Notes: a model not told the origin generated them from the letters alone. A stretch of 4,312 nucleotides of DNA from a virus (IMGVR_UViG_2698536508_000009), one strand, 5' to 3'. Numbered from the stretch's first letter, positions 1 through 4,312 are shown. Program-made: numbers and translations.

Positions 1-30
1 TCTGCGGGAAAGTCTTCGACGGCGAGCTGA
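1..30 (+). CDS. G: Tail assembly chaperone G, extreme C-terminal end (5' truncated by window start); zero frame ends at TGA 28-30
   Basis: Frame 1 reads SAGKSSTAS* and contains the GGGAAAG slippery heptamer as codons GGA AAG (7-12). Its position immediately upstream of the T frame and H matches lambda G/T organisation. Only 9 codons are visible, so the call rests on context. Confidence 0.6.
   Translation, partial: SAGKSSTAS
6..12 (+). promoter_or_regulatory. Programmed -1 ribosomal frameshift slippery heptamer G_GGA_AAG (G to G-T fusion)
   Basis: GGGAAAG is seen directly at 6-12. The zero frame stops 5 codons later (TGA 28-30), while the -1 frame stays open to 470 and encodes a T-like sequence. 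This matches the known lambda G/GT frameshift site, which uses the same heptamer. Confidence 0.8.
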
Positions 31-470
31 ATTTTGCCCTCAGACTGGCGCGAGAGATGGGGAGGCCTGACTGGCGCGCCATGCTTGCCGGGATGACATC
101 CACCGAATATGCCGACTGGCGACATTTTTACCGCACGCATTATTTTCAGGATACCCAACTGGATATGCATTTTTCCGGGCTGATGTACGCTGTACTCAGC
201 CTGTTTTTTTGCGATCCGGATATGCATCCCTCTGATTTCAGTCTGCTTGTCCCCCGGCATGAGGAAGAGCAGGTGGAGAGGCTGGATGAGGACAAAATGC
301 TGATGCAGAAAGCGGCAGGACTTGCCGGAGGCGTCCGGTTCGGTGGGGACGGAGGGGGCGATATTTTATCGTCTGCGGATGTGGCGGATGTCATGGTGGA
401 TGATGCCGCATTAATGATGGCTTCAGCGGGGATTCCGGGAGGTGTGAGATATGTCCCAGCCGGTTGGTGA
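6..470 (+). CDS. T: Tail assembly protein T frame, expressed as the C-terminal part of the G-T fusion by -1 frameshifting (no independent start required); stop TGA 468-470
   Basis: The -1 frame is open from the window start through 470 and reads CGKVFDGELNFALRLAREMGRPDWRAMLAGMTSTEYADWRHFYRTHYF...GGVRYVPAGW, which closely resembles lambda gpT as I recall it. The track ORF 57..470 is the same frame counted from its first ATG. Confidence 0.88.
   Translation, partial: GKVFDGELNFALRLAREMGRPDWRAMLAGMTSTEYADWRHFYRTHYFQDTQLDMHFSGLMYAVLSLFFCDPDMHPSDFSLLVPRHEEEQVERLDEDKMLMQKAAGLAGGVRFGGDGGGDILSSADVADVMVDDAALMMASAGIPGGVRYVPAGW
438..442 (+). promoter_or_regulatory. Shine-Dalgarno (GGAGG) for H
   Basis: GGGAGGTG lies at 437-444, 6-8 nt upstream of the ATG at 451. 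Confidence 0.6.
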
Positions 471-3030
471 TCTTATTATTGACCTGAGTCTGGATGCGGT
501 CCGTTTCGATGAGCAGATGAGCCGGGTAAGGCGTCATTTTTCAGGACTGGATACTGACGCCAGAAAAACCGCCACTGCTGTTGAACAGGGCCTGAGCCGT
601 CAGGCGCTGGCTGCGCAAAAAGCCGGGATTTCCGTCGGACAGTATAAAGCGGCCATGCGCACCCTGCCCGCACAGTTTACGGATATCGCCACGCAGCTTG
701 CCGGTGGTCAGAATCCCTGGCTGATCCTGCTGCAACAGGGCGGTCAGGTGAAGGACTCCTTCGGCGGGATGATCCCCATGCTCAGGGGGCTTGCCGGTGC
801 GATCACCCTGCCGATGGTCGGGGTCACCTCGCTGGCGGTGGCGACAGGTGCGCTGGCGTACGCCTGGTACCAGGGGGATTCCACGCTTTCAGCGTTTAAT
901 AAAACCCTGGTTCTTTCCGGTAATCAGTCCGGACTGACTGCCGATCGTATGCTGACTCTCTCAAGAGCCGGGCAGGCAGCAGGGCTGACGTTTAACCAGG
1001 CGAGAGAGTCACTGGCAGCCCTGGTGAATGCCGGTGTGCGTGGTGGTGAACAGTTTGATGCCATCAACCAGAGTGTCGCGCGTTTTGCGTCTGCATCCGG
1101 TGTGGAGGTGGATAAAGTCGCTGAAGCCTTCGGGAAGCTGACCACTGACCCGACGTCGGGACTGATGGCGATGGCGCGCCAGTTCCGTAACGTGACGGCA
1201 GAGCAGATTGCGTATGTTGCACAGCTGCAGCGTTCCGGAGACGAGGCCGGGGCATTGCAGGCGGCGAACGATATCGCCACGAAAGGCTTTGATGAGCAGA
1301 CCCGTCGCCTGAAAGAAAACATGGGAACACTGGAGACCTGGGCGGATAAAACAGGGAAGGCATTCAAATCGATGTGGGATGCCATTCTGGATATCGGTCG
1401 TCCGGAATCCTCAGCGGATATGCTCGCCAGTGCGCAGAAGGCATTTGATGAGGCGGATAAAAAATGGCAGTGGTACCAGAGTCGGAGCCAGCGCCGCGGT
1501 AAAACCTCCTCTTTCCGGGCCAACCTTCAGGGCGCATGGAATGACCGGGAAAATGCCCGTCTGGGGCTGGCAGCGGCCACGCTGCAGTCGGATATGGAAA
1601 AAGCCGGTGAACTGGCCGCCAGGGACCGGGCCGAACGGGACGCATCACAGCTGAAGTATACCGGAGAGGCGCAGAAGGCGTATGAGCGTCTGCTGACGCC
1701 GCTGGAGAAATATACCGCCCGTCAGGAAGAACTGAATAAGGCCCTGAAAGACGGGAAAATCCTGCAGGCGGATTACAACACGCTGATGGCGGCGGCGAAA
1801 AAGGATTATGAATCGACGCTGAAAAAGCCGAAGTCGTCAGGAGTCAAAGTGTCAGCCGGTGAGCGTCAGGAAGACCAGGCGCATGCTGCCCTGCTGGCGC
1901 TTGAAACCGAGCTCCGGACGCTGGAAAAACACAGCGGTGCGAATGGGAAAATCAGCCAGCAGCGTCGCGATTTATGGAAAGCGGAAAATCAGTATGCGGT
2001 CCTGAAAGAGGCAGCCACGAAACGGCAGTTATCTGAGCAGGAAAAATCCCTGCTGACCCATGAGAAAGAGACGCTGGAGTACAAACGCCAGCTGGCTGAG
2101 CTGGGAGACAAAGTTGAACACCAGAAACGGCTGAATGAGCTGGCACAGCAGGCTGCGCGGTTTGAGCAGCAGCAGGGCGCGAAGCAGGCGGCAATCAGTG
2201 CCCAGGCGCGGGGCCTCACCGACCGTCAGGTGCAGCGGGAGTCGGAAGAGCAGCGCCTTCGTGACGTGTACGGTGATAATCCGGATGCGCTGGCGAAGGC
2301 CACATCTGCACTGAAGAACACCTGGTCTGCGGAGGAGCAGCTTCGTGGAAGCTGGATGGCCGGTCTGAAGTCCGGCTGGGGCGAGTGGGCAGAAAGTGCG
2401 ACGGACAGTTTTTCGCAGGTTAAAAGCGTGGCCACGCAGACCTTTGACGGTATTGCACAGAATATGGCAGCGATGCTGACCGGCAGCGAACAGAGCTGGC
2501 GTGGTTTCACCCGTTCTGTGCTCTCCATGCTGACAGAGATTTTTCTGAAGCAGGCCATGGTGGGGATTGTCGGGAGTATTGGCAGCGCCATGGGTGGTGC
2601 TTTCGGTGGTGGGGCGTCTGCCTCCACGGGGACGGCCATTCAGGCTGCGGCGGCGAACTTCCATTTCGCGACCGGAGGATTTACGGGAACCGGTGGCAAA
2701 TACGAACCTGCCGGTATTGTCCACCGCGGGGAGTTTGTCTTCACGAAGGAGGCAACCAGCCGGATTGGCGTCGGCAACCTGTATCGTCTGATGCGCGGGT
2801 ATGCGGAAGGTGGTTATGTGGGCGGTGCCGGAAGTCCGGCGCAGATGCGGCGGGCGGAAGGCATTAGTTTTAATCAGAACAATCACGTGGTGATTCAGAA
2901 CGACGGCACCAACGGACAGGCGGGGCCGCAGCTGATGAAGGCGGTGTATGACATGGCCCGCAAGGGGGCGCAGGATGAGATTCAGGCGCAGATGCGTGAT
3001 GGCGGCGTCTTTTCCGGAGGCAGGCGATGA
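451..3030 (+). CDS. H: Tail tape measure protein (lambda gpH family), 859 aa
   Basis: A long 859-aa ORF starting MSQPVGDLIIDLSLDAVRFDEQM, which closely matches the lambda gpH N-terminus (MAEPVGDLVVDLSLD...) from memory. It has an Ala/Gln/Lys/Glu/Arg-rich central region and a Gly-rich hydrophobic C-terminal segment (MVGIVGSIGSAMGGAFGGGASASTGTAIQAAAANFHFATGGFTGTGG). It sits between T and M as in lambda. Confidence 0.97.
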   Translation: MSQPVGDLIIDLSLDAVRFDEQMSRVRRHFSGLDTDARKTATAVEQGLSRQALAAQKAGISVGQYKAAMRTLPAQFTDIATQLAGGQNPWLILLQQGGQVKDSFGGMIPMLRGLAGAITLPMVGVTSLAVATGALAYAWYQGDSTLSAFNKTLVLSGNQSGLTADRMLTLSRAGQAAGLTFNQARESLAALVNAGVRGGEQFDAINQSVARFASASGVEVDKVAEAFGKLTTDPTSGLMAMARQFRNVTAEQIAYVAQLQRSGDEAGALQAANDIATKGFDEQTRRLKENMGTLETWADKTGKAFKSMWDAILDIGRPESSADMLASAQKAFDEADKKWQWYQSRSQRRGKTSSFRANLQGAWNDRENARLGLAAATLQSDMEKAGELAARDRAERDASQLKYTGEAQKAYERLLTPLEKYTARQEELNKALKDGKILQADYNTLMAAAKKDYESTLKKPKSSGVKVSAGERQEDQAHAALLALETELRTLEKHSGANGKISQQRRDLWKAENQYAVLKEAATKRQLSEQEKSLLTHEKETLEYKRQLAELGDKVEHQKRLNELAQQAARFEQQQGAKQAAISAQARGLTDRQVQRESEEQRLRDVYGDNPDALAKATSALKNTWSAEEQLRGSWMAGLKSGWGEWAESATDSFSQVKSVATQTFDGIAQNMAAMLTGSEQSWRGFTRSVLSMLTEIFLKQAMVGIVGSIGSAMGGAFGGGASASTGTAIQAAAANFHFATGGFTGTGGKYEPAGIVHRGEFVFTKEATSRIGVGNLYRLMRGYAEGGYVGGAGSPAQMRRAEGISFNQNNHVVIQNDGTNGQAGPQLMKAVYDMARKGAQDEIQAQMRDGGVFSGGRR
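3016..3020 (+). promoter_or_regulatory. Shine-Dalgarno (GGAGG) for M, embedded in the 3' end of H
   Basis: GGAGG at 3016-3020 is 6 nt upstream of the ATG at 3027. Confidence 0.6.
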
Positions 3031-3356
3031 AAACATTTCGCTGGAAAGTGAAGCCGGATATGGAGGTGAACTCGCAGCCATCGGTGCGTGAAGTGCGTTT
3101 TGGTGACGGGTATTCGCAGCGTATGGCGGCGGGGCTGAATGCTGACCTGAAAACATACCGTGTGACGCTTTCCGTGACCCGGGAGGAGGCCCGACATCTG
3201 GAGGCATTCCTGGCAGAGCACGGTGGCTGGAAGGCGTTTCTGTGGACACCGCCTTATGCCTGGCGGCAGATAAAGGTGACCTGTGCCGCCTGGTCATCAC
3301 GGGTTCGCATGCTGCGGGTTGAATTCAGCGCGGAGTTTAAGCAGGTGGTGAACTGA
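3027..3356 (+). CDS. M: Minor tail protein M (lambda gpM family), 109 aa
   Basis: The 109-aa ORF MKTFRWKVKPDMEVNSQPSVREVRFGDGYSQRMAAGLNADLKTY... has the same length as lambda gpM and a closely similar sequence as recalled. Its start overlaps the H stop (ATGA at 3027-3030) and its stop overlaps the L start (ATGA at 3354-3358 region). Confidence 0.95.
   Translation: MKTFRWKVKPDMEVNSQPSVREVRFGDGYSQRMAAGLNADLKTYRVTLSVTREEARHLEAFLAEHGGWKAFLWTPPYAWRQIKVTCAAWSSRVRMLRVEFSAEFKQVVN
3343..3348 (+). promoter_or_regulatory. Shine-Dalgarno-like AGGTGG for L
   Basis: AGGTGG at 3343-3348 is 7 nt upstream of the ATG at 3356. Confidence 0.5.
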
Positions 3357-4001
3357 TGCAGGATATTCACGAAGAAAGTCTGAACGAGTCGGTTAAATCA
3401 GAGCAGTCACCGCGGGTGGTACTCTGGGAAATCGACCTGACGGTACAGGGTGGTGAGCGGTATTTTTTCTGCAATGAGCTGAATGAAAAAGGGGAGGCGG
3501 TTACCTGGCAGGGGCGGCAATATCAGGCATACCNNNNNNNNNNNNNNNNNNNNNNNNNNNNNNNNNNNNNNNNNNNNNNNNNNNNNNNNNNNNNNNNNNN
3601 NNNNNNNNNNNNNNNNNNNNNGGGTGTATGCGCGTTTTCTGGATGCGGTGAATTTCGTTGCGGGCAATCCGGAGGCGGACCCGGAGCAGGAGCTGAGTGA
3701 CCGCTGGGTGGTGGAGCAGATGTCGCAGCTGACAGCCATGACGGCCTCGTTTGTGCTGGCTACACCGACCGAGACGGATGGGGCGCTGTTTCCCGGTCGC
3801 ATCATGCTGGCGAACACCTGTATGTGGGATTACCGGGGAGATGAATGCGGGTATAACGGTCCTGCGGTGGCGGATGAGTTCGATAAACCCACCACCGATA
3901 TCCGTAAGGACAGATGCAGCAAGTGCATGCGCGGGTGTGAGATGCGCGGCATGGTGGCTAATTTTGGCGGTTTCCTTTCCATTAACAAACTTTCGCAGTA
4001 A
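3356..4001 (+). CDS. L: Tail tip protein L (lambda gpL family), interrupted by an assembly gap; visible length is 646 nt, so the true gene is probably longer
   Basis: The N-terminal part MQDIHEESLNESVKSEQSPRVVLWEIDLTVQGGERYFFCNELNEKGEAVTWQGRQYQAY (3356-3532) and the C-terminal part VYARFLDAVNFVAGNPEADPEQ...CSKCMRGCEMRGMVANFGGFLSINKLSQ* (3624-4001) both match lambda gpL as recalled. The two parts are in different frames only because the N run (88 nt) is not a multiple of 3. Stop is TAA 3999-4001. Confidence 0.93.
3534..3621. other. Assembly or scaffold gap (run of 88 N) inside gene L
   Basis: Unbroken run of n characters seen directly in the sequence. Confidence 0.99.
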
Positions 4002-4006
4002 ATCCA

Positions 4007-4312
4007 ATGACACAGACAGAATCAGCGATTCTGGCGCATGCCCGGCGGTGTGTGCCTGCGGAGTCGTGCGGCTTCGTGGTGAGAACGCCGGAGGGGGAGC
4101 GGTATATCCCTTGTGTGAATATCTCTGCAGAGCCGGAGGCGTATTTTCGTATTGCACCGGAAGACTGGCTGCGGGCAGAGATGCCGGGGGAGATTGTGGC
4201 ACTGGTCCACAGTCATCCCGGTGGGCTGCCCTGGCTGAGCGAGGCTGACCGGCTGCTGCAGGTAAACAGTGCACTGTCCTGGTGGCTGGTCTGCCGGGGG
4301 GAAATTCATACA
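4007..4312 (+). CDS. K: Tail protein K (lambda gpK family), N-terminal 102 codons; 3' truncated by window end
   Basis: From the ATG at 4007 the ORF reads MTQTESAILAHARRCVPAESCGFVVRTPEGERYIPCVNISAEPEAYFRIAPEDWLRAEMPGEIVALVHSHPGGLPWLSEADRLLQVNSALSWWLVCRGEIHT, closely matching the lambda gpK N-terminus as recalled. It contains an H-S-H-x7-S-x2-D motif and runs open to the window edge. Confidence 0.93.
   Translation, partial: MTQTESAILAHARRCVPAESCGFVVRTPEGERYIPCVNISAEPEAYFRIAPEDWLRAEMPGEIVALVHSHPGGLPWLSEADRLLQVNSALSWWLVCRGEIHT

Follow-up and report, generated by a model that had tools for sequence, protein, structure and literature searches.

The question raised by this locus is whether the reading frame T, which runs in the -1 register relative to the open reading frame that closes just ahead of it, is a gene in its own right or the C-terminal extension of a fusion protein made by programmed ribosomal frameshifting. 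The DNA analysed, referred to throughout as the window, is one strand of 4312 nt from the virus IMGVR_UViG_2698536508_000009, and the junction lies at its very start. Comparison with related sequences indicates, with high confidence, that window 1–470 comes from an Escherichia coli (STEC-type) lambdoid prophage and represents the G/T junction of its lambda-type siphovirus tail module, at which T is entered from G by a -1 frameshift and is not an independent gene.

The prototype of such a junction is the programmed -1 frameshift of phage lambda G/G-T, reportedly the subject of work by Levin, Hendrix and Casjens in 1993 and by Xu, Hendrix and Duda in 2004, 2013 and 2014. Low-level -1 frameshifting in lambda couples the production of gpGT to that of gpG, and the resulting gpG:gpGT molar ratio of about 30:1 is crucial to tail assembly (PMC5009743). 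Both proteins attach to the tape measure protein H, the partner of the T domain is the major tail protein V, and the virion contains neither gpG nor gpGT (PMC5009743). The slippery sequence is GGGAAAG (PMC3296357 Table 1; PMC7618472); about 96% of ribosomes keep the zero frame there (PMC3296357), and the shift apparently needs no stimulatory signals (PMC5009743). When tRNA-Lys is hypomodified (mnm5s2U34), frameshifting goes up and phage yield goes down (PMC3296357; PMC7618472). The text of section 9 of PMC3296357 prints the lambda site as GGGTTTG, with Lys codons 'TTG/TTT'; Table 1 of the same paper gives it correctly. An earlier annotation of the window, made from its sequence alone (the sequence-only reading), had stated that lambda makes a low-level G-T fusion whose ratio to G is needed for tail assembly, in agreement with PMC5009743 and PMC3296357.

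Collection and alignment of related loci

Single-protein scans for relatives returned almost exclusively near-identical sequences. Diversity was obtained by tblastn of phage records (using rows spread over the matches), and further distant relatives were obtained by an alignment-based scan led by a Providencia sequence. Heptamers were located by anchoring on the conserved RPDWR motif, and the junction was usable in 260 of the 262 loci collected before that last scan. Fold z-scores were computed in 25 representatives; the phi80/mEp237-type loci folded were L097 and L098 (693–787) and L233, L258 and L260 (802–896), corresponding to window 13–107.

A scan of genome contigs yielded mostly contaminating lambda DNA. 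Contigs identical to lambda (100% over 1.1–3.1 kb) were encountered in assemblies labelled Neobacillus notoginsengisoli, Oceanobacillus profundus, Kitasatospora papulosa, Pseudomonas sp. 30_B, Chromatium weissei and Tardiphaga robiniae and in a Chromatiales MAG, and in a Marinilabiliaceae contig a stretch of about 0.5 kb matched lambda at 99.6% identity. Several of the lambda-matching contigs (L085–L092) have very low coverage in their names, and the lambda matches in L085–L092 are almost certainly lambda DNA contamination of the assemblies.

Identity of the window and prophage context

Window 1–3533 was 100% identical to a lambdoid prophage of E. coli E2865 (locus L001), with window position 1 at L001 5001. 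Of 5426 complete E. coli genomes, 3728 had lambdoid prophage matches to window 1–1200, which places this prophage family in the majority of sequenced E. coli; 125 records matched this segment at an identity of at least 99%, with 100% identity in many STEC strains. The nearest phage records were those of PhiR12 and of Stx-converting phages. The annotated gene order in L001 is V-like tail protein (3833–4585), gpG (4599–5030), T (5057–5470) and tape measure protein (5451–8030), followed by M, L, K (C40 peptidase), a tail assembly protein and J. By this annotation and by the start of H at window 451, the overlapping G/T pair of open reading frames is flanked by the genes for the major tail protein and the tape measure protein. 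The features of the window are listed in Table 1.

Table 1. Features of the window, in order of position
Feature	Coordinates	Strand	Evidence
3' end of gene G, last nine sense codons (SAGKSSTAS) and TGA 28–30	1..30	+	Direct reading; L001 G 4599–5030
Slippery heptamer G_GGA_AAG, very probable programmed -1 ribosomal frameshift site	6..12	+	Lambda identity, conservation in relatives
T frame (-1 relative to G), 152 codons and TGA 468–470	12..470	+	Pfam PF06223 Phage_tail_T, E 3.2e-13; tblastn versus lambda T
Candidate RNA structure: outer helix 20–27/83–90, inner hairpin 46–61/66–81	20..90	+	RNAalifold consensus
Stretch from G stop to first in-frame ATG, evolving as T-frame coding sequence	31..56	+	Codon-position entropy, conserved peptide
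ATG used as T start by RefSeq/PGAP, codon 16 of the T extension	57..59	+	L001 CDS 5057–5470
Gene H, tail tape measure protein, 859 aa	451..3030	+	Pfam TMP_2, 4e-69; Tape_meas_lam_C, 2e-20; L001 annotation
Gene M, minor tail protein, 109 aa	3027..3356	+	Pfam Phage_min_tail, 7.5e-39
Gene L, minor tail protein, frame broken by N-run 3534–3621	3356..4001	+	L001 comparison
Gene K, 5' part, C40 peptidase, open to window end	4007..4312	+	L001 annotation

H starts at ATG 451 and shares its first 20 nt with the end of T. Its Shine–Dalgarno (SD) sequence (CGGGAGGUG) is strong (-11.6 kcal/mol) and falls inside the last codons of T. Stop–start overlaps are present at H/M (3027–3030) and M/L (3356) and suggest translational coupling along the tail operon.

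Two irregularities of the sequences concern regions away from the junction. In the window, 88 nt of N (3534–3621) replace 141 nt of gene L present in L001, and the L frame is broken for this reason. The segment beyond the N-run (3622–4312) is 98.4% identical to L001 as against 99.4% to another prophage copy in the same STEC genomes; the N-run probably marks a scaffold gap at which contigs from repeated lambdoid prophages were joined, which would make the window chimeric. In the region 871–3825 of L001, an IS66-family element (tnpA, tnpB and ISEc22 transposase) has a truncated S49 head protease gene on one side and a truncated U gene on the other. The E2865 copy is defective: its capsid and head–tail joining genes are missing because the IS66-family insertion has removed them, and the frameshift site in this copy may no longer be serving virion production.

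Slip site and reading frames

The first codons of the window, read directly in the G frame, are TCT GCG GGA AAG TCT TCG ACG GCG AGC TGA. The heptamer GGGAAAG (6–12) is in the slippage phase G_GGA_AAG and is followed by five sense codons (13–27) and then by TGA 28–30, exactly as the sequence-only reading had placed it. The remainder of G lies upstream of the window, and the upstream frame is called G because identical and near-identical prophages carry it; the full gene is known from L001, where it encodes 143 aa (Pfam PF06894, Phage_TAC_2, E 3.2e-50), and the expectation that the upstream zero frame would be G-like was borne out in this identical prophage.

The first codon after a -1 slip would be GTC 12–14, from which the frame is open for 152 codons to TGA 468–470, with ATG 57 as codon 16. 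The earlier estimate of about 155 codons was close, and the description of the frame as T-like holds by its Phage_tail_T match and its identity to lambda T. The predicted G-T fusion comprises 138 aa of G (through the Lys) and 152 aa of T, giving 290 aa (~31 kDa), with the junction ...DDFSAGK/VFDGELNF... (slip site at the slash). This predicted product contains the peptide SAGKVFDGELNFALR, and the tryptic peptides predicted at the junction are ...NNALTDDDFSAGK followed by VFDGELNFALR. The junction peptide proposed earlier, CGKVFDG, was incorrect, the predicted sequence being ...SAGK/VFDG...; its Cys is the -1-frame reading of TGC 3–5 and is absent from the junction because ribosomes arriving in the G frame never decode these bases.

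The sequence-only reading had also named a combination of features that would speak against frameshifting, namely a T-frame stop immediately before the heptamer together with a T start that has its own functional ribosome-binding site. The stop exists, a TGA shutting the T frame three sense codons before the GGG of the heptamer, but is irrelevant to slippage because ribosomes arrive in the G frame; a start with a functional binding site was not found.

The frequency of the heptamer did not exceed chance. GGGAAAG is expected 0.70 times per window (both strands), and at least one copy occurred in 104 of 200 shuffles. These counts ruled out heptamer frequency as evidence, and the case must therefore rest on phase, position and conservation. 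The properties that do go beyond chance are the phase of the heptamer, its place at the end of a G-type open reading frame, its identity with the lambda site and its conserved aligned column. An upstream SD-like stimulator of the dnaX type was also looked for, and no GGAGG-like element occurs in L001 in the 20 nt before the heptamer (CTTACTGATGATGATTTTTCTGC).

Comparison with phage lambda

The end of lambda G reads GTT TCT GCG GGA AAG TGT TCG ACG GTG AGC TGA. The heptamer G_GGA_AAG, its phase and the distance of five codons to the G stop are all identical in lambda and the window, the flanks are nearly identical (window, TCTGCGGGAAAGTCTTCGACGGCGAGCTGA; lambda, TCTGCGGGAAAGTGTTCGACGGTGAGCTGA), and in both the site follows the major tail gene and precedes H, the tape measure gene. 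The predicted fusion aligned with lambda gpG-T (279 aa) from end to end in a single HSP with 69% identity (E 2e-141) and without a gap at the junction. Window T is 71% identical to lambda T (tblastn), with homology starting from query residue 1, the first residue past the slip. In a lambda imm434 record, T carries the label 'frameshift product GT'.

The differences from lambda concern lengths and setting. G has 143 aa in the window type and 140 aa in lambda, the T extension has 152 aa and 144 aa, respectively, and upstream of the heptamer the T frame is closed at a distance of three sense codons in the window as against 13 in lambda. The window-type site belongs to an STEC-type prophage of which the fully identical copy is defective. 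The feature is already known and ordinary, being closely orthologous to the lambda G/G-T site, the prototype of this recoding.

By homology with lambda, most ribosomes translating G would read GGA AAG in frame and stop at TGA 28–30, producing the chaperone G. A small fraction (~4% in lambda) would slip back by one base on G_GGA_AAG, with tRNA-Gly re-pairing from GGA to GGG and tRNA-Lys from AAG to AAA; these ribosomes would resume at GTC 12–14 and translate 152 further codons to give the 290-aa fusion. Many copies of G and few of G-T would coat the tape measure protein H, and the T domain would recruit the major tail protein V. A fixed G:GT ratio of about 30:1 would be needed for correct tail assembly, and neither protein would enter the virion. 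For the window allele the occurrence of slippage, its efficiency and the chaperone function are extrapolated from the lambda experiments; given the identical slip site and the 69% identical proteins, the lambda mechanism is by far the best explanation.

Conservation among relatives and other recoding systems

A shift-prone heptamer was present at the aligned column in every one of the 260 related loci with a usable junction (GGAAAAG in 163, GGGAAAG in 94, AAAAAAG in two and GGGAAAA in one), with the G-frame stop 0–5 codons past it. Across the 54 unique 110 nt junction sequences A9–A11 were invariant, while the neighbouring columns varied. Among twelve diverse phages the identity of T to the window fell to as low as 38%. 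The aligned heptamer is GGGAAAG in lambda, the window and Stx2a phage, AAAAAAG in Stx1 and Stx2d phages, and GGAAAAG in phi80, mEp043, mEp237, Flotzy, cdtI and a Providencia phage.

In relatives at a still greater distance, a Lys codon (A_AAG or A_AAA) is retained in phase and in many cases directly precedes a TAG stop. Among bacterial -1 motifs, those that allow cognate A-site re-pairing (ZZN to ZZZ) are the most effective, and a tetramer Z_ZZN can be enough (PMC4066793); the conservation of the slip site across relatives fits this rule. In a set of distant T-family relatives (L263–L277, L286–L290 and L314; around 795–804) the slip-site Lys codon abuts the G stop, the sites being GGAAAAG TAG, GGCAAAA TAG and CGAAAAG TAA, so that termination, and not elongation, would be the competing process there.

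Sites of the phi80, mEp237 and cdtI types serve homologous G and T; their slip falls on the same Lys codon of the alignment, and G ends 0–5 codons further on. They differ from the window in using G_GAA_AAG, with imperfect P-site re-pairing where that of G_GGA_AAG is perfect, and in having a shorter T (112–115 aa) from which Met 16 is absent. The tail assembly chaperones of other long-tailed phages (P2 E/E', SPP1, TP901-1 and mycobacteriophages) are also encoded by an overlapping pair of open reading frames just upstream of the tape measure gene, but they have little or no sequence similarity to G/T and use other slip sites, sometimes +1. The window, closely orthologous to the lambda prototype, is no distant analog of this kind. 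In long-tailed phages a low-efficiency frameshift sets the ratio of short to extended chaperone (PMC5009743; PMC10885494). Outside tail modules, the -1 slip of E. coli dnaX (gamma/tau; A_AAA_AAG) is centred, as in the window, on tRNA-Lys moving from AAG to AAA (PMC4066793; PMC5009743). The window differs from dnaX in having no established stimulator, a presumably low efficiency and a longer product. Frameshifting in dnaX is driven by strong stimulators on both sides, an SD-like element upstream and a hairpin downstream, reaches an efficiency of ~50% and gives a shorter product.

T as a probable extension of G

Conservation of T starts at the slip site. The T-frame peptide ELxFxLxLAREfGRPDWRAML is conserved from directly after it, and tblastn homology began at query residue 1 or 4 in nearly all of the relatives listed and never beyond residue 8. 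The entropies at T-frame codon positions 1/2/3 were 0.19/0.24/0.75 bits for columns 31–56 and 0.40/0.17/0.86 bits for columns 57–110. The third-position pattern is the same in both, which places the coding signature ahead of any start codon. Taken together, peptide conservation and third-position variability extend over columns 13–56.

The first T-frame Met is codon 6, 10, 16 or 24 depending on the clade; in the phi80 type codon 16 is Phe (TTC), and the 23 conserved codons before Met 24 contain no ATG, GTG or TTG. At ATG 57 the best duplex with the anti-SD sequence has an energy of -3.0 kcal/mol and a gap of 1 nt, compared with -10.8 kcal/mol for G, -11.6 kcal/mol for H and -9.5 kcal/mol for M. 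T is denied gene status of its own because conservation begins at the slip site, upstream of any start, and the ribosome-binding site is poor. These comparisons indicate that T is most likely the C-terminal extension of G-T, with ATG 57 and ATG 81 as internal Met codons. The earlier advice not to annotate T from ATG 57 is upheld by the conservation upstream of this Met and its negligible SD sequence.

Records disagree on the start of T, which is ATG 57 in RefSeq, ATG 81 in PhiR12_1 and elsewhere again in mEp043, mEp237 and cdtI; the phi80 record (FN582354) marks the slippery sequence and joins G and T in one gpG-T CDS. Inside T, an SD-like GGGGAGG (60–66; -10.9 kcal/mol with the anti-SD sequence) is situated 14 nt before the in-frame ATG 81–83, and might give rise to weak internal initiation (a truncated T from ATG 81) or to a ribosome pause.

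Alternative explanations

T could instead be translated independently, by initiation or by termination–reinitiation at ATG 57 (27 nt past the G stop) or ATG 81, with the heptamer being incidental. A separate 'phage tail assembly protein T' CDS is annotated from ATG 57 by PGAP and from ATG 81 in PhiR12_1, and the G stop is near enough to ATG 57 for reinitiation in principle, but this codon is essentially without an SD sequence and is replaced by Phe in the phi80 type. The case for ATG 81–83 is that it is invariant in all relatives and is preceded, although 14 nt away, by GGGGAGG; this element is not conserved in lambda, which has GGGGCGA. The 15–23 codons that precede the two Mets show protein-level conservation with T-frame third-position variability, and conserved T codons without an in-frame start require entry from G by frameshifting. 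The lambda T frame is moreover reported to be expressed as gpG-T (PMC5009743; PMC3296357). An independent T is considered very unlikely.

That the heptamer is a chance occurrence, or a relic in a decaying prophage from which functional frameshifting has gone, appears less likely again. The motif is expected 0.7 times per window, and the E2865 copy is without head genes and has a truncated protease and U, but G, T and H each retain an intact frame and the heptamer has the lambda-homologous position and phase, kept in the 260 usable loci including complete inducible phages such as PhiR12 and Stx phages. Slippage is also a property of the mRNA and the ribosome and would persist upon transcription of the operon, even if its usefulness were lost. 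The least probable explanation, to which we attach hardly any weight, is that the frame is changed by slippage of RNA polymerase on the G and A runs and not by the ribosome. RNA polymerase slippage needs runs far longer than three bases, and the window has just three G and three A. Some relatives do have a longer A-run (AAAAAAG in Stx1 and Stx2d phages), and homopolymer runs can yield -1 products through slippage during transcription (PMC5009743); what the relatives conserve, however, is the in-phase A_AAR Lys codon and not the length of the run, which fits the rules of tRNA-Lys re-pairing (PMC4066793), and the gpG:gpGT ratio of lambda responds to thiolation of tRNA-Lys U34 (PMC3296357). Ribosomal -1 frameshifting from G into T remains the preferred explanation: the observation made in the sequence-only reading is confirmed, and its interpretation as a frameshift site is supported.

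Candidate downstream RNA structure

The RNAalifold consensus contains an outer helix that begins 7 nt after the heptamer and encloses a GC-rich hairpin. Over the 54 sequences 89% of the cells in this candidate structure are paired, with 88% for the outer helix. Pair 21/89 is AU in 37 sequences, GC in 11 and CG in five, and pair 23/87 occurs as CG, UG, GU and UA. Double changes affect five pairs, against 3.5 in shuffles; five or more were obtained in 73 of 500 shuffles. The third-position entropy is 0.42 bits in the helices and 0.90 bits outside (p 0.025), a comparison limited to the lambda and phi80 clades and confounded by preferred and by Trp/Met codons. The helix 20–27/83–90 is not kept in the cdtI or Providencia types, and a search of Rfam gave no family match in the window.

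Folding energies differ between clades. The minimum free energy of the window has a z-score of -1.3 to -1.5 and that of lambda -2.1, with values close to 0 for most clades at a greater distance. For phi80 and mEp237 types, the 95 nt after the heptamer have z-scores of -3.4 to -5.65 relative to dinucleotide shuffles (versus -1.3 in the window), with the stem starting 6–8 nt past the heptamer. The signal for a stimulatory structure is suggestive in the phi80/mEp237 clade, whereas it lacks significance in the window and is not kept by the distant clades. The downstream helix in the window is possible, and is regarded as a lead and not as a finding. A long-range RNA domain (20–90) could conceivably tune G-T slippage, its strength offsetting the quality of the heptamer and holding G:GT constant, although we consider this improbable. 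If true, the structure would be strong with the imperfect G_GAA_AAG (phi80, mEp237) and weak with the perfect G_GGA_AAG (lambda, window), and the G-T frameshift of lambdoid phages would not be stimulator-free.

Implications

As biology the G/T junction of the window is nothing new, and the value of the finding lies in annotation. RefSeq/PGAP and several phage records list a stand-alone T with arbitrary starts, where a joined ribosomal-slippage CDS, running in window coordinates from the G start to 12 and again from 12 to 470, would be correct. Such records give an N-terminally truncated T and omit the 290-aa G-T product, and T misannotated in this way affects protein family models, proteomics databases and the training sets of frameshift predictors.
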